Assembly (NCBI GenBank): GCA_964610875.1
Contig: CAZSWP010000003.1
Coordinates: 1 to 48,102 of the forward strand
Reading direction: 5' to 3'
Source: an uncultured archaeon
GTDB lineage: Archaea; Asgardarchaeota; Thorarchaeia; Thorarchaeales; Thorarchaeaceae
Length of the DNA: 48,102 nt
Shown: piece by piece, positions 11,770 through 29,660 of the stretch
Numbering within the stretch: position 1 is the first letter of the stretch
Layout of the letters: every line of letters begins with the position of its first letter
Position numbers and translations under genes: made by a program
The notes under the pieces: model-generated
What the model saw: only the letters and a program-made list of their open reading frames with translations
Told to the model about the DNA's origin: nothing
Databases searched by the model: none

Positions 11770-11883
11770 ATCTAAAAAATTAGTAAACTATAGTTAATAA
11801 TCTTTGGATATGTCCTGCTTTTAGTATACGGAGATGGTTCGGACAGATAAAATTCTGAGATTGTGTACATCATTTGTCCTTCT

Positions 11884-12318
11884 CTACCACTTCAATATCT
11901 TGTACTGATGTTTCTCAAAGCAATCTGAACATACTCGGAACCATAGATCACTCTCTTTATTCTCTATCTTCTTGGCAATAATTTCTCCGTTCTTTATTGG
12001 AAGGTTATTCCCACAGAGATTGCATCTATAGACAGCCTCAACACGAAACTGAATCACTCTTGAGGGGCACGTGTAAATTCGTTCATTGCGTTTGGAACTA
12101 CCCAACTCTCGCATGTCGCCAAGTACTCGTAGAGATTGCAAAAGTGGATACATGCCTACAAAACTCTCCCCACATAATCCTTCAGGTGTGTGCCAGTCAA
12201 ATGTGAAGACTTTGCCTTTCTTATGATCAGCTCTGCAGTTGCCATCCTTGATGACTTCTACCTTGAAACTGACAGGTTCATGCCATGACTCAAGAAGATG
12301 AAGGACTTCATTATTCAT
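11884..12318 (-). CDS. TIGR04076 family protein with C-terminal CxxC...CxxC extension
   Basis: GNCRADHKKG, TPEGLC, YTCP; CNLC and CSDC. Confidence 0.75.
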   Translation of the reverse strand: MNNEVLHLLESWHEPVSFKVEVIKDGNCRADHKKGKVFTFDWHTPEGLCGESFVGMYPLLQSLRVLGDMRELGSSKRNERIYTCPSRVIQFRVEAVYRCNLCGNNLPIKNGEIIAKKIENKESDLWFRVCSDCFEKHQYKILKW

Positions 12319-12418
12319 TTGTTCAGGGCACCCATATTCAATACAACAGGTTCGCTATTTACTTTACTCATGGTATCGAGTGTATAGAAACCCCGTTCTT
12401 GCACTGTTTGTAGGCACA

Positions 12419-12454
12419 TCACAATCGAATCGGATTCGTTCCAATCCTCTTGAT
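12419..12454 (-). repeat. displaced copy of the mvhD 3' end
   Basis: Reads ATC AAG AGG ATT GGA ACG AAT CCG ATT CGA TTG TGA = IKRIGTNPIRL*. Confidence 0.8.
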
Positions 12455-12533
12455 ATTGTTCACTAAATAATTGCTCTACTGCAGTCTAATGTCTTCTATG
12501 AGTAGGATTGTTGTGCGCATACAATATTGGAGT

Positions 12534-13055
12534 CTATATGTTATCACTAATACCTCTCGCTATTTTCAAGACTTGCCCGTATACCTTGGAGTCCAATCGA
12601 AATCCCAAATCAATCATTTGATCAAGAGTTGCAATGAAATCAGAAAAGTTCAGATTCGAATTTGATAAGGCTTGAAGTAGAACTCCTAAAGTACCCAGGC
12701 ATCGTACGCCTAGGATTTCTGCTGCACTCCGTCCCATTTTATCATCGATAAGAAGAAGGGCATTCTTCTCTTTTGCAAGAAGAATGGCTGTGGCTTCTCC
12801 AAAATCAATCCCAGAGCTCTTTGCAATGAGAGCTGCGTCTTTGTTTGTAATATCTATACTTTGAATCCATCCCTCTTTAACAGCTGAGGAAATAACAATT
12901 GCATCTGGTGAGTCCTGAAGCCCACAGGTCTCATTGAGGACTTCATGGGGTATCATTATCTCTTGGAACAGTTCCTTTAGAATGGAAATTCTCCCGACCT
13001 TTGCTAGATAGATTAGTGGACTTGCATTGCTGACCACTCTATTGCTCCCTGACAA
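12534..13055 (-). CDS. PIN-domain toxin, DUF3368 family
   Basis: VVSNASPLIYL, IDFGEATAI, LLIDDKMGR, GTLGVL; start approximate, overlaps the antitoxin. Confidence 0.9.
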   Translation of the reverse strand: MSGSNRVVSNASPLIYLAKVGRISILKELFQEIMIPHEVLNETCGLQDSPDAIVISSAVKEGWIQSIDITNKDAALIAKSSGIDFGEATAILLAKEKNALLLIDDKMGRSAAEILGVRCLGTLGVLLQALSNSNLNFSDFIATLDQMIDLGFRLDSKVYGQVLKIARGISDNI

Positions 13056-13344
13056 ATGCAAGATCACGCTCCAGGTCATCCACATCATACGCGATGGAAA
13101 TAGATGCTTTGTCAGCCTCCTTCATCATTACTCTTAGTGGTACACCTGCCATAGAGGCAGCCTTCCAGAGAGAAACTCGTTTCTCTCTATATGCCTTCAG
13201 TGCCCTCTCCAATAGGAATTGCTGTATTCCGATGGCCAGAGCTCTCCTGATCAACTCCGACCGATCAATATGTTCTTCTTTGGCAATGAGCTCCAGTTTC
13301 TTAATCATGTCTTCTGGTAGTCTTGCAGTTACAGTTTCCATCAT
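13039..13344 (-). CDS. UPF0175 / ribbon-helix-helix antitoxin
   Basis: TVTARLP...DRSELIRRAL (RHH) and VSLWKAASMAGV; directly upstream of the PIN gene. Confidence 0.88.
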   Translation of the reverse strand: MMETVTARLPEDMIKKLELIAKEEHIDRSELIRRALAIGIQQFLLERALKAYREKRVSLWKAASMAGVPLRVMMKEADKASISIAYDVDDLERDLAFVREQ

Positions 13345-13402
13345 ACGTCGTGTGCATTATATTATTTTGTACACATAAGCCTTTCCTTATTCCGCTCATA
13401 CT

Positions 13403-13438
13403 CTATAGTCGTATTGGAGTCTGGTCAATCTTCCCAAT
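13403..13438 (-). repeat. degenerate displaced copy of the mvhD 3' end
   Basis: Reads ATT GGG AAG ATT GAC CAG ACT CCA ATA CGA CTA TAG = IGKIDQTPIRL*. Confidence 0.65.
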
Positions 13439-13514
13439 CTACTATTTTGTTAGTCATGGCAAAAAGAATGTTCTTTGCCTGGAGAATAATCCAAATTTTC
13501 CTCGGCGTGATATT

Positions 13515-13544
13515 TTACAATCGAATCGGGTTCGGACCAATCTT
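13515..13544 (-). repeat. displaced copy of the mvhD 3' end
   Basis: AAG ATT GGT CCG AAC CCG ATT CGA TTG TAA = KIGPNPIRL*, four differences from 15331-15360, all synonymous. Confidence 0.9.
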
Positions 13545-13549
13545 TGTAT

Positions 13550-13960
13550 TTATGTCATATACAGGAGTTTGGAGATACTCTGTTTCTCAGCAATAGATAG
13601 CTGTTCAGGTAGATATCGTTCTTTTGGAATAAGTTTCAGCCGGATGGTATCAAGTTCATGGACGTTTGGATTCTGTATTCGAATGATAGCTGCATTGCTT
13701 TCGATAATTCTGTATTCAGATAATGTTTCTTGAACTCTATGAACCACATCCAGAACGCGCTCAACCGTCCGAGGGTTGAGATTGGTCCTCTTGAAAACCT
13801 CTAGGACTGAGAGTTCATCCTCAAGAATGAGAGCTTGGGTGACTTCTTCTCATAGACTCCTCAAGAGTTGTACGTCGTTTAGACTTCTCCGCAACATGAA
13901 GCAGCTCTCTGACCTGCATCCTCTACTGAAGTCCGCTTTCTCGGGGTCATGGTCTGTCAT
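13550..13960 (-). pseudogene. frameshifted paralog of the tandem-wHTH protein at 14017-14709
   Basis: KRRTTLEESMRR / VTQALILEDELSVLEVFKRTNLNPRTVERVLDVVHRVQE...ERYLPEQ aligns with RTSVEEVIER..LEIEDDLTVAELARRAGVNRKTVDRALD...KWYFPDE across a frame change. Confidence 0.75.
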
Positions 13961-14016
13961 TCCTTTATCGATTTGACATATACTAGTCTGGACTATCCAA
14001 AATAAACTCACAAAGA

Positions 14017-14709
14017 CTATGAAGTCAGTAAGAGGGCTTTCTCTTGTTCCTCTGGAAGCTCTTCTACTTCATCAGGAAAGTACCATTTCTTCAGCAGATA
14101 TTTGATTATTGTAGAGTCAAGGTCATATATCTCAGGACGCAGTCGCCAGATTATCATATCCTTCTTTGAGATGATGCCTTTAGCTATCTGCTCTTGGAAC
14201 TTAGTTATGATGTCCAGAGCTCTATCAACCGTCTTCCTGTTCACACCAGCACGTCGAGCCAGTTCTGCCACTGTGAGATCATCTTCAATCTCTAATACGA
14301 TAAACAAGCGTTCTATCACTTCTTCCACTGAGGTTCGAGATGCTGACTCAAACCTGGCGCTTATCTGTTCAGCACTCATGTCTGGTTCTTTTTTCTTGAA
14401 GAACCGTTTCTTGATGTACCACTCACGTATTTCCTCAGGCAGTCTTATCTTATCCAGCCGGTCTCTCATCCAGACAATCTTACCCGCTTTACTCTTCATG
14501 ACTCTGATCTCATGTGCTGCAAATATCTCTTGCGTATTCATCAAGAAGTCAATCACACGTTCTACTGCACGCCAGTCCACATTTGTGCTATCTGCAATAG
14601 CCATGATGGTTATTGGTGACTCTACCACTACTGTATCTAGTATGGACTCAACAGCCTCTTCGAATGTCGTTCTCTTATCATCTGTCATATCCGTCACCAT
14701 GTCGTTCAT
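14017..14709 (-). CDS. tandem (internally duplicated) winged-helix DNA-binding protein
   Basis: Two homologous halves, RTTFEEAVE..ITIMAIADSTNVDWRAVERVID and RTSVEEVIE..LTVAELARRAGVNRKTVDRALD. Confidence 0.8.
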   Translation of the reverse strand: MNDMVTDMTDDKRTTFEEAVESILDTVVVESPITIMAIADSTNVDWRAVERVIDFLMNTQEIFAAHEIRVMKSKAGKIVWMRDRLDKIRLPEEIREWYIKKRFFKKKEPDMSAEQISARFESASRTSVEEVIERLFIVLEIEDDLTVAELARRAGVNRKTVDRALDIITKFQEQIAKGIISKKDMIIWRLRPEIYDLDSTIIKYLLKKWYFPDEVEELPEEQEKALLLTS

Positions 14710-14717
14710 TTCCTACT

Positions 14718-14958
14718 ATAACTGTGACACTCTCACTCACTGTCGTAACTGTTAGTCGGTTGACTCGATTTTGGACCACGTGTCTAGCCACATCATTTCT
14801 AGCGGAGTTGATTGTACTGACGTGTAGCAGTCTGTCGCGTTCTTATACTCGCTTTAACGTATATATATCTTATCACTACTAATTTTGTTTATATTTTCGC
14901 TTATTATATCATTATATTTCTTTATTACGGCAAATATATATAAGGATGTGACAGTTAT
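14718..14958. promoter_or_regulatory. divergent promoter with matched TGT(C/G)ACAGTTAT sites before both start codons
   Basis: ATAACTGTGACA at 14718-14729 and TGTGACAGTTAT at 14947-14958; AT-rich TATA-like core between them. Confidence 0.55.
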
Positions 14959-14965
14959 CATCTTT

Positions 14966-15277
14966 ATGCAACTATCTGAGATTGACCTCATCATCATGGC
15001 GTGCATGTACGATGAGGACCGGATAGGTGCACATCATGGCAATGTAGAGAACATCCTTAAATTCTGTACACCGAAAGAGTACCGTGACAGGTACAGAGTC
15101 AGTATACTCAAAAAACGTCTTAGAAGACTGGCACGTGCAGGGTATCTTCGTATGAAGAAGGGAAGATTCGAAGCGTATTCTCTGACACAACGGGGAGTCA
15201 ATATTGCAGAACGCTGGAAACAGGGCTGGACTGTTGATCAAATTAACGATGCCGAGAGGAAAGAGGGTTTTCTCTAG
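14966..15277 (+). CDS. small winged-helix protein
   Basis: ATG at 14966; LKKRLRRLARAGYL...YSLTQRG wHTH pattern. Confidence 0.78.
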   Translation: MQLSEIDLIIMACMYDEDRIGAHHGNVENILKFCTPKEYRDRYRVSILKKRLRRLARAGYLRMKKGRFEAYSLTQRGVNIAERWKQGWTVDQINDAERKEGFL

Positions 15278-15330
15278 AAATATGGATTTCTGTTTATTCT
15301 ATACCTGTACTGCATGTGCAATTTGGTCTT

Positions 15331-15741
15331 TTACAATCTTATCGGGTTTGGGCCAATCTTCCTGATTTCTTCCGCGAACTTGTTGACCTCAGCGGCAAAC
15401 TTGTCACCCTCAGCCGCACTCACGAAGACCATCTTCACCCTGTCCTTGTTCAGGCCCACCTGGCCAACTAACTCCCTCGCAAACCTCACCCTTCGCTCAG
15501 CCCCCAAATTTCCGGTCTTATATGCGCAGTCACCAGGATGGCAACCCACCACCAGCACTCCGTCGGCACCTTCCTGCAGCGCCTTCAAGATGAAGTTGAT
15601 GTCCAGCCTCGCGGTACACGGCATTCTGATTATCCGCGACGTGATGTCGTACTGTAACTTCATGGTCCCTGCAAGGTCGGATGCTGCGTACATGCATTGC
15701 ATGCACCCGAAAACTATGATGTTCATGTCTTTAGGAGGCAT
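15331..15741 (-). CDS. mvhD: hydrogenase/Hdr-associated 2Fe-2S subunit MvhD (FlpD), Cys form
   Basis: FGCMQCMYAASDLAG, RMPCTAR, GADGVLVVGCHPGDCAY, VSAAEG, IGPNP. Confidence 0.95.
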   Translation of the reverse strand: MPPKDMNIIVFGCMQCMYAASDLAGTMKLQYDITSRIIRMPCTARLDINFILKALQEGADGVLVVGCHPGDCAYKTGNLGAERRVRFARELVGQVGLNKDRVKMVFVSAAEGDKFAAEVNKFAEEIRKIGPNPIRL

Positions 15742-15804: not shown

Positions 15805-17721
15805 TAGGGTCGCTGGGAGATTGTACTCCCAGCGCATGCAGTGCCCGACCAGTTCAGGGATTGTGAGATGTTGAGTGAACCTCGCAATCTTTCTGCAACC
15901 TCTGCGTTCCACCAGACCCGTGACAGCCATCGCTGGACTCAGGACCATTCACACGTTCCTGATTGACACGAGCCTTGTCAGACTTCATTTGAACATGGTC
16001 CATCTGCCTGAACGTGGCTTCTTTCCTCTGCTCAAGTACATCGGACCCACCAGACCTTGGGCTGTCAAGGTGTCCGACGGCAGGAGGTGATTCCGCAGCA
16101 CTTTCCACGACTGGATCTTTATCACTCATTTTACCCTTGTCGCCAAGAATAAGAAGGTCTTGTTGGACATGGTGAACAGTCGCGGACTCCCCTTCAAGCA
16201 AGGCTGGTGACCTCTGAGGGAGTGAGGACTTCTGCTTAGAAACTTCGGCGGTTTTCCTTGCAGCTTTTGGACGTGGCTTCTGCTTAGAAGCATGTAACCA
16301 ACGCCCTAGTCCTTTGAGCTCATCCTGCAATGCAGGAGTAAGCTTTATTCTTCGTATTGCAATGTTAATGGCGCCATTTCGGTCAGCATTCGTTCGATAA
16401 CCACAGGTTGGACAGACAAAGAGGTCCTGTTTAGGTCGAGTTCCTCTTCGTCCACATTGACTACATGTAATGCTAGTCCTTCCTTCATACACCGCAAGAA
16501 AACGACTCTCGAATCTACCAACGCTCCATCCAAGTTGGGAGAAGTGGTGTTCGAGTTTCTGGATTACCCTGAAGAAAGCCCACCTATGTATCATCTTACG
16601 ATACTTACGACCACAGCTATACTGTTTGGATGCAATATTCCGAATTCCTTTGGGATTGCCAACAGCAACATAGAGATTGTACTTTTGACTGAGTTCTGTC
16701 ACATAATCGATAAGATTTGCAACTAGAACACGGTCCCACTCTTCGTTGATGTTAGCCTGTTTGTGTCGTAATATTCGGAGTTTCTTTGCAAGTTTGTCAT
16801 ATGGCAGTCTTTGCTCTCTACGGATTCGCATATCTCTCTGAAGTGAAGAGATACGCTGTTCACATCTCTTGAGATATTCTATCTTCTCTTTCTGATAGAA
16901 ATACCTGACATGCTGAACACGGTCTTTGGTGAGTGTCACAGCACATGCGGCTTTGCTGATTCCAAGATCAATGCCTACCACAGCTAAGGGTCTTTCCTTC
17001 TGGAAACTTTTCTTTGACTCGTTGATTCCTATTGAGAAGACGACCCACCAGCGACATTCATCATCCTTGACTATCTTACATGAATTCATAGTCCCTCTCT
17101 CTATCTGTGATAGATGGAAAGGAGAGACCTTGAGAGGAACGGTCAGCTTGTCATGAACTCTTCGACCCTGTCTGACAGAGTCAAGCGAGTCCCTGATTTC
17201 AAGCCAGTGTTTGATAGTCAAATCTGGACGATAAACAAGCTGGAACAGCTTTGGAAAGATGTTTCGAGGAATCTTCCGTTTTCGCTTTCCTTCCATATGC
17301 AGTGGCGGACTACCACCTTTTCGTAGATAGCTAGTCCACATATTGACTGCAACGTCTCGACATTCTTGTAGTTCATTCACAGAGATATTGGGAAACCTCG
17401 CTTTGAAATCATGCGGGACTTCAAGACGACGTCTCTTAGGGTCTTTGTGTCTTAGAGCTGTAAGAGTAAGTCTGTCAAGCTGTACAATATCGATTCGTTT
17501 CCACTTATCGCCTTTAACAAGTTGCTTTTGATGTCGTTCAATGACACCAAGATACGCTCTTATGACTCTGGTATCCCGACCTGTGATATGAGAGAGTCTG
17601 GTACGCTGTCGTTTTGTCATTCTTTCCCAGTTGATGGGAACCTTGACACTGACAATTGTACCCGAAGAGCGACGCATTCTAAATACACCGAATATAAATT
17701 TCCGACCTGTTGCAGGTTCGG
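15805..17721 (-). mobile_element. non-autonomous IS200/IS605/IS607-superfamily element (tnpB only); ends approximate
   Basis: tnpB flanked by hairpins CCGACCTG-TTG-CAGGTTCGG (17702-17721) and CGCTGGGAG-N6-CTCCCAGCG (15811-15834); no tnpA nearby. Confidence 0.6.
15854..17677 (-). CDS. tnpB: TnpB/Cas12f-like RNA-guided endonuclease with long C-terminal tail
   Basis: RuvC-I VVGIDLG (D237), zinc ribbon CSQC..CPTC, RuvC-III NADRNGAINI (D432). Confidence 0.92.
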   Translation of the reverse strand: MRRSSGTIVSVKVPINWERMTKRQRTRLSHITGRDTRVIRAYLGVIERHQKQLVKGDKWKRIDIVQLDRLTLTALRHKDPKRRRLEVPHDFKARFPNISVNELQECRDVAVNMWTSYLRKGGSPPLHMEGKRKRKIPRNIFPKLFQLVYRPDLTIKHWLEIRDSLDSVRQGRRVHDKLTVPLKVSPFHLSQIERGTMNSCKIVKDDECRWWVVFSIGINESKKSFQKERPLAVVGIDLGISKAACAVTLTKDRVQHVRYFYQKEKIEYLKRCEQRISSLQRDMRIRREQRLPYDKLAKKLRILRHKQANINEEWDRVLVANLIDYVTELSQKYNLYVAVGNPKGIRNIASKQYSCGRKYRKMIHRWAFFRVIQKLEHHFSQLGWSVGRFESRFLAVYEGRTSITCSQCGRRGTRPKQDLFVCPTCGYRTNADRNGAINIAIRRIKLTPALQDELKGLGRWLHASKQKPRPKAARKTAEVSKQKSSLPQRSPALLEGESATVHHVQQDLLILGDKGKMSDKDPVVESAAESPPAVGHLDSPRSGGSDVLEQRKEATFRQMDHVQMKSDKARVNQERVNGPESSDGCHGSGGTQRLQKDCEVHSTSHNP

Positions 17722-17864
17722 TTATAGAGATTCACTCGTTCTATTGTAATGTAGAACAAGTGAAATACTCCACACTATTCTTTCCTGACGGAAAGAATAT
17801 AAATTTATGACTAAGGGGAACATGGGTAAAGTAATGCGAGCCACTAAAGCTGCATCAGAACTGG

Positions 17865-18173
17865 TTGCGACCGCTCAAAGAGTCCCTACAAAGTTTCCTG
17901 ACAAATGAAGAGTTGGCGTACTTGAAGATTAATGAAGCGGATTTGATTCTTGTCGTTTTAGTAATCACTATATTTACTGTACAATTTGTCAATACAATTT
18001 ATCAAGTATCTCTTGCCTACTTTTTCTTTGCTCTACTATTCTACTCTGTTGGTATTGTGCTAATCATTATGAGTGCATTGAGTGAGGATGAAACAAGAAC
18101 AAGTTCTGACAATGAGAAATCAGAAATCTTTGAAGAGCCTGACGAACTTAAATCTAAGGAAGTAATAGTGTAG
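17865..18173 (+). CDS. small membrane protein (2 TM)
   Basis: Two hydrophobic stretches, acidic tail, adjacent to the next gene. Confidence 0.6.
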   Translation: MRPLKESLQSFLTNEELAYLKINEADLILVVLVITIFTVQFVNTIYQVSLAYFFFALLFYSVGIVLIIMSALSEDETRTSSDNEKSEIFEEPDELKSKEVIV

Positions 18174-18177
18174 GTCT

Positions 18178-19266
18178 ATGGATACTCTAAAAACTGAGAT
18201 ATGCGATATACTTGGAATTAAACACCCAATTCTACAAGGGGGGATGGGCCCATACAAAACTGAATCACTAGCAACTGCAGTATCCAATGCGGGAGCTCTT
18301 GGGATTATCAGTAGTATTGGGATGGCAGCAACACTCTTACCAGATGCAGCACCAGTTGATCCAATTCGTCTTTTCGGCTCTACAGACCCACCTAAAGTAC
18401 TACTCCAAAGGTCAATAGAAAGAGTTGCCACAGATACAAGGAAATCAAGAGGAATCTTTGGAATCAATATTCCTGTAGCTTCTGAATTTATTCTTGCATC
18501 AAAGATGTTCTTTGAGCAGACTGTGGAATCCTGTATAAGTGACTCGGATATTGAGCGAAGGCTAAGAGTCATTGTAACTTCAGCAGGTAATCCAACTCCA
18601 TGGGCGGAGATCAAAAAACATGGGTTCATCTGGATTCATGTAGTGCCTTCAGTGTACCATGCGAAAAAGGCAGAGAAAGCAGGTGCGGATATTATAGTTG
18701 CATCTGGACACGAAGGCGGAGCACATGTTTCCTGGGAACCGGTGCATTCTATGGTTCTGACACCAGCTGTTGTTAATGCTGTCAAAACTCCGGTAGTAGC
18801 AGCAGGTGGGTTCTGTGATGGTGCATCATTAGCTGCAGCACTTTGCTTGGGCGCAAAAGGGATCCAAATGGGAACGAGGTTCATTGCAACCAAGGAGAGT
18901 GATTTTGAGCCCATCTGGAAAAATGCAATTATCGAGAAAGGAGAACGTCAGACAATTACAGGAAGAGGTCTTTTTGGTCCAATGCGTTTCCTTTTCAATA
19001 AGAGAGCTGAATGGATTGTAGAAAGAACACTGGAAGATATGCCAAGGTTCTATCTAGGAGAACCAGTTGAATCCAACGAAGAAGTCTTGGAACTTGAACG
19101 CTCTGGGTTTGATGACTTGGTAGATGAGAAAAGTGACACTGCTCTAATGTTTGGTGGAGAATGTGTAGGAAGAATAAATGATATGCCAACAGTTGATGAA
19201 CTGATCTCAGAGATAGTCAGGGATGCAATTGCAGTCCTTAAAGAAACAAAAAATCAGTACACCTGA
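18178..19266 (+). CDS. nitronate monooxygenase / FabK-like flavin oxidoreductase
   Basis: PILQGGMG, GHEGGAH, AAGGF.DG, QMGTRF. Confidence 0.92.
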   Translation: MDTLKTEICDILGIKHPILQGGMGPYKTESLATAVSNAGALGIISSIGMAATLLPDAAPVDPIRLFGSTDPPKVLLQRSIERVATDTRKSRGIFGINIPVASEFILASKMFFEQTVESCISDSDIERRLRVIVTSAGNPTPWAEIKKHGFIWIHVVPSVYHAKKAEKAGADIIVASGHEGGAHVSWEPVHSMVLTPAVVNAVKTPVVAAGGFCDGASLAAALCLGAKGIQMGTRFIATKESDFEPIWKNAIIEKGERQTITGRGLFGPMRFLFNKRAEWIVERTLEDMPRFYLGEPVESNEEVLELERSGFDDLVDEKSDTALMFGGECVGRINDMPTVDELISEIVRDAIAVLKETKNQYT

Positions 19267-28733: not shown

Positions 28734-29660
28734 TCATGAAGTGGTCATTATCCATGTTACAAGTCCAGCACTCATTATGAGACCTATGCCATATGCTAAA
28801 TCAAAGTAGAACAATAACGCAGTTGTATCAATGAGTAGAAATACTGCGGTACTCAATCCGAGAAGAATTAACACAGCTAGCACTAGTAGACCCCGCTCAG
28901 CCTTAACCAATGGTTCATCATCGATTGTGAAGACCCTCAAAGAGAGAATGAACACAGGAAATGCAAGTGGGGGAAATATCAGAAGCATGAAACAGGTTGG
29001 GAGTAACATGATACCGCTAAGTTGCATTCGAATTCCGTTGATACGATCAGCATACTTCTGAAACTCTGCTGCATACACCTTACCATGTTCTTTGTAAATA
29101 TGTGTCTGATAACCTTTCCAGAGAGAGAATTTCAATGCGCCAAAACGTTTCTTTATTGCATCGATACGGCTCTCTTCATATTCTGGATTGTATTCACTCT
29201 TGACTACTGGAATGAGATAGACCGTAAGCAGTAATGACCAGACACCATAGAGAGTAATCAGAATCTCAAGCAGAGATAATGTACCAGTTGCAAAAAAGGC
29301 ATCATAGAGCTTCCATCCAGCATAGATGATGATTACAACGAGAGGGATTGTGAGAGCCATTTTCATTCTTTGTGCTTTTGTCTTGTTTCCGCGGATAGTA
29401 TCAGAAACCTGTCTGAACACAAACCCGCCAATGGAAGCATATGTCAGAGCGATTCCAATACCACCCATGAATTTCATGACACTGCCCGATATGGTCAAGA
29501 GTGTGATAAGAGTCGTTGAGTTGAGAATCTGAGTGAGATCCCAAGCATTGACATATAGGAGTACCAGAAAAGCAATTGTGCCAATTATGAATGATAGAAT
29601 GTAGTATGTTCTGAATCTACTGTATCTTTCTTTCTTTCCTAACCCGAGGATACCGCTCAT
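28734..29660 (-). CDS. integral membrane protein of unknown function
   Basis: Start placed at MSGILG because the longer ORF overlaps tRNA-Leu; multiple TMs. Confidence 0.75.
   Translation of the reverse strand: MSGILGLGKKERYSRFRTYYILSFIIGTIAFLVLLYVNAWDLTQILNSTTLITLLTISGSVMKFMGGIGIALTYASIGGFVFRQVSDTIRGNKTKAQRMKMALTIPLVVIIIYAGWKLYDAFFATGTLSLLEILITLYGVWSLLLTVYLIPVVKSEYNPEYEESRIDAIKKRFGALKFSLWKGYQTHIYKEHGKVYAAEFQKYADRINGIRMQLSGIMLLPTCFMLLIFPPLAFPVFILSLRVFTIDDEPLVKAERGLLVLAVLILLGLSTAVFLLIDTTALLFYFDLAYGIGLIMSAGLVTWIMTTS

Follow-up and report, generated by a model that had tools for sequence, protein, structure and literature searches.

Rearrangements of the RuvC-II motif are known from two major TnpB clades and eight large branches, several of them nearly exclusive to archaea, and TnpB groups linked to Asgard archaea have been described in the same work (Altae-Tran et al., PMC10691335). 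Jiang et al. defined 'TnpB2' by exactly such a substitution, in which the canonical glutamate is replaced by glycine and an alternative glutamate follows downstream; the alternative glutamate is essential in a Fanzor, and an archaeal protein with such a site, TvTnpB from Thermoplasma volcanium, cleaves DNA (PMC10530073). In the mimivirus Fanzor2 the triad is D324/E467/D501, and its glutamate was shown to be catalytic (PDB 9B0L; PMC11832414). Here we describe a unit on the minus strand (positions 15847-17776, 1.93 kb) of a 48,102-nucleotide stretch of archaeal DNA (contig CAZSWP010000003.1 of assembly GCA_964610875.1; the whole stretch is called the window), which encodes a TnpB protein directly upstream of an flpD/mvhD-like gene. 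We hold it probable, at roughly 0.72, that this unit is a transposase-less TnpB/omega-RNA element that has a rearranged active site and a scaffold inside its open reading frame (ORF), has lost a giant partner gene, resides at flpD and probably encodes an active nuclease. Since rearranged sites are published from many TnpB branches and TvTnpB is active (PMC10691335, PMC10530073), the novelty attached to the site in the initial annotation of this DNA has to be given up, and the window protein adds a well-documented Asgard example to those already known.

The catalytic glutamate of RuvC-II is gone from the end of strand beta-4, the place that marks canonical TnpB and Cas12f, where the window protein has Gly340, and an invariant glutamate, E398, stands at the end of beta-5 instead. 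The protein thus combines the two marks of a rearranged TnpB, i.e., glycine or proline in place of the canonical glutamate and a conserved alternative ~45-50 residues downstream, the distance here being 58 residues. In HMMER alignments to AsCas12f, made with the protein as well as with the profile of its 92-sequence family, G340 falls on the canonical RuvC-II glutamate ('tiqmEdl') and E398 on the proline of 'idPqyTSqrC'. Both columns switch together: among 200 homologs of at least 330 amino acids, 186 carry the pair (G,E) and nine the pair (E,P), the nine being canonical TnpBs and the most distant among the matches listed, and this joint switching argues that the pattern is not due to chance. 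Evolution could hardly supply cleaner evidence for a site of this kind than this natural covariation. Invariant in the 92-member family alignment are D237, G239, G340, R360, E398, T401, S402, the four zinc-finger cysteines, R414, D432 and N438. In the AlphaFold2 model, which is confident for residues 1-470, G340 closes strand 334-341 and E398 directly follows strand 393-397, corresponding to beta-4 and beta-5 of the RNase H fold, and this placement matches the geometry described for rearranged TnpBs (PMC10691335).

E398 would complete a D237/E398/D432 triad, and the conservation and the model together make a rearranged and complete rather than a dead active site most likely. The protein probably works as an RNA-guided endonuclease on DNA, of the 'RuvC-II rearranged' type known from the literature. 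The 34 residues separating E398 from D432 equal the distance between E467 and D501 in the mimivirus Fanzor2 (ApmFanzor2). The HMMER match ranges (345-440 with 420-509) put D432 on D501 and, provided that no gap falls within the zinc-finger stretch, E398 on E467, a correspondence taken from match ranges and spacing; a sub-query of residues 340-404 returned weak Cas12k matches only. The initial annotation had placed D237, G340, E398, the zinc finger and D432 exactly, and its claim that a glutamate before the zinc finger replaces the canonical one is confirmed, as E398 is conserved and lies at the position reported for Fanzor and 'TnpB2'. A lack of conservation of E398 in homologs, which it had named as grounds for abandoning the idea, was not seen in the 92 relatives.

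As judged from its sequence, the protein is a member of the TnpB family, with D237 and D432 in place and RuvC-II and RuvC-III separated by a C4 zinc finger, as in the TnpB superfamily. The ORF runs uninterrupted over 607 amino acids, of which residues 388-439 match PF07282 (Cas12f1-like TNB domain) above the Pfam cut-off (6.6e-13); NCBIfam ranks guided_TnpB first (1.1e-23, below the strict cut-off), followed by Cas12f2, IS607_TnpB (2.3e-10) and IS200_TnpB. The predicted model has the WED-REC-RuvC fold of TnpB, and Foldseek matches its core to AsCas12f (2e-17, TM-score 0.60-0.63 by target length), the ISFba1 TnpB (1e-13) and the ISDra2 TnpB (3e-11). The N-terminal 230 amino acids had been regarded as atypical, a view that could not be upheld, because a profile alignment matches the region from residue ~86 onward with the WED/REC part of AsCas12f and about 470 columns, i.e., the whole 1-470 core, superpose on Cas12f in Foldseek. 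Among six orthologs the divergence of the core by codon position is 0.29/0.22/0.59, and the excess at third over second positions (0.59 vs 0.22) indicates purifying selection on the core.

The last 135 codons encode a guide-RNA scaffold of ~360 nt and a terminal hairpin capped by GTTCACTCA, and their translation gives a disordered peptide. RNAalifold applied to 29 tails found 62 consensus pairs in 14 helices, 50 of them with compensatory double changes; 96.1% of cells are paired, as against 35-46% with slid partners, and none of 500 shuffles reached the observed values. A structured RNA at the 3' end, as expected of TnpB, is therefore present, and no Rfam family was found for the scaffold. The divergence of the tail by codon position (0.26/0.29/0.31 in the six orthologs) is nearly equal, which indicates constraint at the nucleotide level, and the DNA of the region is conserved even among paralogs that share merely ~45% protein identity. 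The very large, covariation-supported scaffold inside the ORF supplies RNA boundaries for reconstituting the clade of the window; the scaffold of ISDra2 measures ~130 nt. In the homologs the stop codon occupies one of two positions, either ~100 nt ahead of GTTCACTCA or 14-35 nt past it, and in the clade of the window the stop is a TGA within a conserved CCCTGAA end motif.

After the scaffold, the 3' part continues with GGAACGCAG-AGGTT, 16 variable nucleotides, GTTCACTCA, further variable nucleotides and CCCTGAACTGGTC. The GTTCACTCA motif has its sole exact copy of the window at 15872-15880 (minus strand) and is conserved across 29 homologs. A 'hypervariable region flanked by T and GTTCACTCA' has been proposed as a possible guide (PMC10691335). 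In our alignment the 12-16 variable nucleotides before the motif pair with bases after it in 21 of 24 homologs; the motif therefore caps a hairpin, the stretch is read as scaffold, and we rejected it as the guide. Reading the 'hypervariable region' as a hairpin arm would alter guide design for such enzymes. The aCas1-associated Asgard TnpBs (Cas1H-Asgard-1/-2; PMC10691335) resemble the present family in their Asgard host, in the variable stretch downstream of tnpB with a conserved T on one side and GTTCACTCA on the other, and in the giant divergent gene that full elements of the family carry. They differ in that the window copy has no partner gene and its 'hypervariable region' acts as a hairpin arm and not as a guide.

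The boundaries of the element follow from its paralogs (Table 1). Pairs of paralogs at 82-88% identity delimit a unit of ~1.9 kb which ends just past an ACAGGTY motif and starts ~100-115 nt upstream of the ATG, the corresponding distance in the window being about 100 nt. At the left end a TTCAC motif is present in direct and inverted copies, along with a TATA-like box and a second ACAGGT motif. The flanks at the right end differ among the copies of the same genome, and together with the pattern of other TnpBs this leads us to expect the guide from position 15846 downward; by that analogy it would comprise the ~16-20 nt after the right end. Three candidate guides were compared with the 3.75-Mb genome, namely the 16-mer of the internal variable region, the stretch that follows GTTCACTCA and the right-end flank, and none had a second match with up to two mismatches. 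A 13-nt match at 29343-29355 does not exceed chance, and no similarity to the 3' end of flpD was seen. The hairpin at 15812-15833 (minus strand) sits between the right end and the flpD TATA box and is specific to G000, G008 and metagenome orthologs. GGCACTGCAT with its hairpin was tried as an ancestral upstream element of flpD and rejected, being absent from empty flpD sites. In some loci the terminal motif (CTGAAAYRGGTCGGTGCATRCATCC, or its equivalent in L002) occurs twice, 29-41 nt apart, upstream of flpD in L087 (G018), L090 (G028) and L084 (G002) and after the right end in L002; this arrangement, which looks like repeat-spacer-repeat, may go back to a second insertion or to duplication of an attachment site.

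Table 1. Coordinates of the element, its parts and the adjoining host gene in the window (pLDDT, predicted local distance difference test)
Feature	Position	Strand	Basis
tnpB ORF (P0001)	15854..17677	-	607 amino acids, intact; every family-invariant residue present
Folded core, residues 1-470 (WED/REC, RuvC, zinc finger)	16268..17677	-	AlphaFold2 pLDDT mostly >90; Foldseek to AsCas12f
RuvC-I Asp D237 (GIDLG at 235)	16967..16969	-	Invariant (92/92); among the last residues of strand 231-238
G340 (YVAVGNP at 336), canonical RuvC-II Glu position	16658..16660	-	Aligned to the catalytic Glu of AsCas12f; invariant Gly; end of strand 334-341
E398 (LAVYEGRTSITCSQC at 394; YEGRTS), alternative RuvC-II Glu, ExxTS motif	16484..16486	-	Invariant; covaries with G340; directly after strand 393-397
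C4 zinc finger C405/C408/C422/C425 (CSQC at 405, CPTC at 422)	16403..16465	-	Four Cys invariant; PF07282 match
RuvC-III Asp D432 (NADRN at 430)	16382..16384	-	Invariant
Disordered ORF tail, residues 473-607	15857..16261	-	pLDDT <50; translation of the omega-RNA part
Omega-RNA scaffold, ~360 nt, 14 helices	15902..16263	-	RNAalifold covariation; slid and shuffled controls
Terminal hairpin, GTTCACTCA (15872-15880) at apex	15861..15896	-	Pairing across the motif in homologs
Right-end motif CCCTGAACTGGTC	15847..15859	-	ORF stop TGA (15854-15856) inside; conserved unit of the paralogs ends with a motif of the (A)ACAGGTC type
Left end: AGTGTGGAGTATTTCACT, hairpin, inverted GAGTGAA copy, AACAGGTCGG, TATA-like box (17690-17701)	17690..17776	-	Conserved among orthologs; layout of paralog pairs
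Candidate guide, first ~20 nt beyond the right end	15826..15846	-	Analogy with TnpB omega-RNAs
Covarying hairpin of 8 bp, which overlaps the candidate guide or immediately follows it	15812..15833	-	Stem differs in every ortholog yet is complementary
flpD/mvhD-like host gene	15331..15741	-	Conserved downstream neighbour; PF02662 in orthologs

Many Thorarchaeota genera have the element, whole or eroded, at one and the same position upstream of flpD. Five tnpB orthologs with 59-63% identity, each from a separate assembly, all lie directly upstream of the flpD/mvhD-like gene, in a block that runs from flpD to the FTR1-HD-AsnC genes on one side and on the other usually includes a cupin gene at a distance of a few genes, and the window is organised in the same way. 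FlpD is 84-96% identical in 37 of the 41 family genomes. Upstream of it, nine of these genomes have a full tnpB and G063 has a truncated one; in G022, G027 and G023 the omega-RNA is reduced to its final 70-190 nt, and at least ten genomes have nothing at the site. The flpD locus offers a natural series, from the full element through solo tnpB and RNA stump to the empty site, for the persistence and decay of TnpB without a transposase. In a tree the copies linked to flpD fall into two clades with good support, and the linkage label requires 2 changes as against 8.6 for shuffled labels.

About ten paralogous tnpB loci were detected in the genome to which the window belongs, with 41-58% protein identity to the window copy and none closer. 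The window copy has lost a divergent giant gene that belongs to full versions of the element: an ORF of 1,498-1,838 amino acids without a Pfam match stands divergently upstream of three of the paralogs and upstream of flpD-linked copies in six other genomes, including the closest genomic ortholog of the window copy, and there is no trace of it in the window. Searches of Pfam, NCBIfam and PDB sequences with this giant neighbour gene of the paralogs were all empty and lent no support by sequence to a Cas1 nature. Two of the paralogs, only ~45-50% identical to each other, are preceded by a 92%-identical 1.3-kb sequence (L002:3255-4547 and L004:3130-4425; C3:150781 onward and C37:34996 onward), which is the 5' part of a giant ORF running off both contig ends and is homologous (25-38%) to the Pfam-less ORFs of 1,498-1,838 amino acids on contigs C78 and C18.

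No Y1 transposase (PF01797) was matched in the 95%-complete genome, in a search to which the controls responded, so that the Y1 TnpA by which an IS200/IS605 element is recognised is found neither in the element nor in the genome. Pfam searches for Cas1, Y1 transposase and resolvase gave no partner near the window copy, and the Cas1 hits in this genome and 40 relatives never lie near any tnpB copy. Two serine recombinase genes are present on contig C18, beside a 731-amino acid TnpB that has a canonical site and is without GTTCACTCA. This gene (C18:22497-24701, plus strand; 731-735 amino acids) retains the canonical RuvC-II glutamate (YFENL) and a proline before TSQKC, and it adjoins both a giant ORF and a serine recombinase; two distinct TnpB families therefore share the giant partner in one genome.

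Among the rearranged TnpBs (TnpB2 or RIIr), TvTnpB shares with the window protein the exchange of glutamate for glycine with an alternative glutamate ~45-58 residues downstream before the zinc finger, the NADxN motif of RuvC-III, the archaeal host and the omega-RNA at the 3' end. It differs in being part of an IS605 element with a Y1 TnpA, a partner that the window clade does not have. At about 400 amino acids TvTnpB is also much smaller than the window protein, which in addition has its ~360-nt scaffold inside the ORF. Cas12f and Cas12f-like TnpB (AsCas12f 8J12/8DZJ; 9NZP) are the best matches in sequence and fold across WED, REC, RuvC and zinc finger; they differ in retaining the canonical RuvC-II glutamate, and Cas12f uses CRISPR arrays, whereas the window protein combines G340/E398 with an RNA of the transposon type. 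The ISDra2 TnpB has a canonical triad and a TnpA partner, and the family profile matches it at 6.6e-4 only. It resembles the window protein in a scaffold overlapping the 3' end of tnpB, a disordered C-terminal tail and a guide expected after the right end, and its proposed role is to cut empty sites and so retain the element (PMC10055086).

We propose that the window copy is a solo derivative of a composite Asgard element consisting of the giant gene and the tnpB/omega-RNA module. It would have resided upstream of flpD for a long time under purifying selection, and its ribonucleoprotein may cut element-free copies of its own insertion site, which would favour retention or homing (PMC10055086) and is the most parsimonious function to assume. 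Several observations weigh against the reading of the unit as a flpD-resident element with an RNA-guided nuclease. The candidate guide is unusually conserved among the orthologs at the flpD locus and runs into the covarying hairpin, and this conservation and overlap could mean another role; no transposon-associated motif (TAM) was identified, and no genomic target was found for the candidate guides. Furthermore, the tnpB frame of every homolog extends 360-540 nt into the RNA without a stop, whereas 2-19 stops interrupt the two alternative frames. The two flpD-linked clades leave vertical descent and repeated site-specific insertion unseparated, and a single origin is possible.

The lost canonical glutamate could also belong to a nuclease-dead TldR-like protein, i.e., a domesticated RNA-guided DNA binder that regulates flpD with a guide pairing 30-60 nt upstream of the flpD TATA box. 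A regulator of this kind would agree with a gene that is immobile, present as a single copy at the locus and conserved beside flpD across genera, and with the strong conservation of the sequence after the right end. We nevertheless consider it very unlikely, since TldR proteins lose catalytic residues without compensation, whereas here the invariant E398 covaries with that of the RuvC-II glutamate, and the zinc finger is intact, as are D237 and D432. The equivalent substitution pattern is active in ApmFanzor2 and TvTnpB, paralogs with the identical site occur at unrelated loci, and in several lineages the gene has disappeared from the flpD site with flpD itself unchanged (84-96% identity). The preference of the initial annotation for a rearranged over a TldR-like dead site is thus retained, and the protein looks selected and intact. 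Its suggestion of relevance to the origin of Fanzors is not. If the Asgard clade were the specific prokaryotic sister or ancestor of the eukaryotic Fanzors, with the rearranged site inherited rather than convergent, the common G/P substitution, the alternative glutamate 34 residues before RuvC-III in both and the Asgard host would be accounted for. The mimivirus Fanzor2 (9B0L) indeed shares the D/E/D triad with its glutamate displaced C-terminally by ~50 residues, a compact TnpB-like core and the C4 zinc finger; it differs in its origin from a eukaryotic virus and its nuclear localization signal, and no common N-terminal extension was seen. The family profile favours the canonical-glutamate proteins, with the Cas12f-like TnpB 9NZP at 3.6e-27 and AsCas12f at 1.4e-25 ahead of Fanzor2 at 6.3e-12, and Fanzor1 is not matched at E<=1. 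The order given by Foldseek agrees, with Cas12f first and Fanzor2 at rank 21, and of the 1.8 billion representatives, those nearest to the family without belonging to it have the canonical E/P pair. In the literature Fanzors are derived from bacterial or IS607-type clades, and the rearrangement has been reported in multiple branches (PMC10691335 for the branches). Fanzors are further recognised by a eukaryotic or eukaryotic-virus host together with nuclear localization signals and/or introns, whereas the window protein and its close relatives come from Asgard genomes and the ORF is uninterrupted. Close relatives are named Thorarchaeota and distant (G,E) members Heimdallarchaeota or 'Asgard group', from which we infer an Asgard archaeon as the host, as had been presumed in the initial annotation. 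The Cas12f-like nearest matches, the canonical outgroup and the Asgard membership point to a TnpB clade spread across Asgard archaea, in which the rearrangement may well have arisen separately from that in Fanzors. A Fanzor sister group is therefore highly improbable, and as far as the present evidence from profiles and folds goes, we found no special link to Fanzor.

The remaining alternatives concern mobility. The element might be an insertion sequence that still moves, with the product of the giant gene or the IS607 serine recombinase of this genome acting in trans, and that inserts recurrently and site-specifically upstream of flpD. The discrete ~1.9-kb units with defined ends in the family, the giant-gene homologs and the two serine recombinase genes of the genome, the two separate clades at the flpD site and the different flanks that other copies abut are all in keeping with such mobility. 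It is nonetheless improbable, because no copy in the genome is closer than 58% protein identity, the orthologs share synteny on the flpD side and yet have diverged to 59-63%, the decay series suggests old residents, and neither a Y1 transposase in the genome nor a Pfam Cas1 near any copy in the 41 genomes was found. A possible though doubtful reading takes the TnpB/omega-RNA module without its partner gene for a free-standing, homing-endonuclease-like element or a host-recruited nuclease, which stays upstream of flpD through a transposase-free homing cycle and is kept under purifying selection across Thorarchaeota genera. The intact, eroded and empty flpD alleles would then mark a homing cycle that needs no transposase. 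The same series of alleles fits a homing-endonuclease-like cycle and simple decay after vertical inheritance equally well, and we retain the reading as a transposase-less element that probably encodes an active nuclease.

The surroundings of the element in the window add a few minor observations. The segment between flpD and the FTR1/HD/AsnC genes (11800-15330) differs in content in every orthologous locus, and a scan of the window for tRNA genes found none. On the other side, 400 nt (17777-18177) separate the left end from the next gene (18178-19266, plus strand), and within them a TTG-start ORF of 102 amino acids (17865-18173, plus strand) resembles a small membrane protein.

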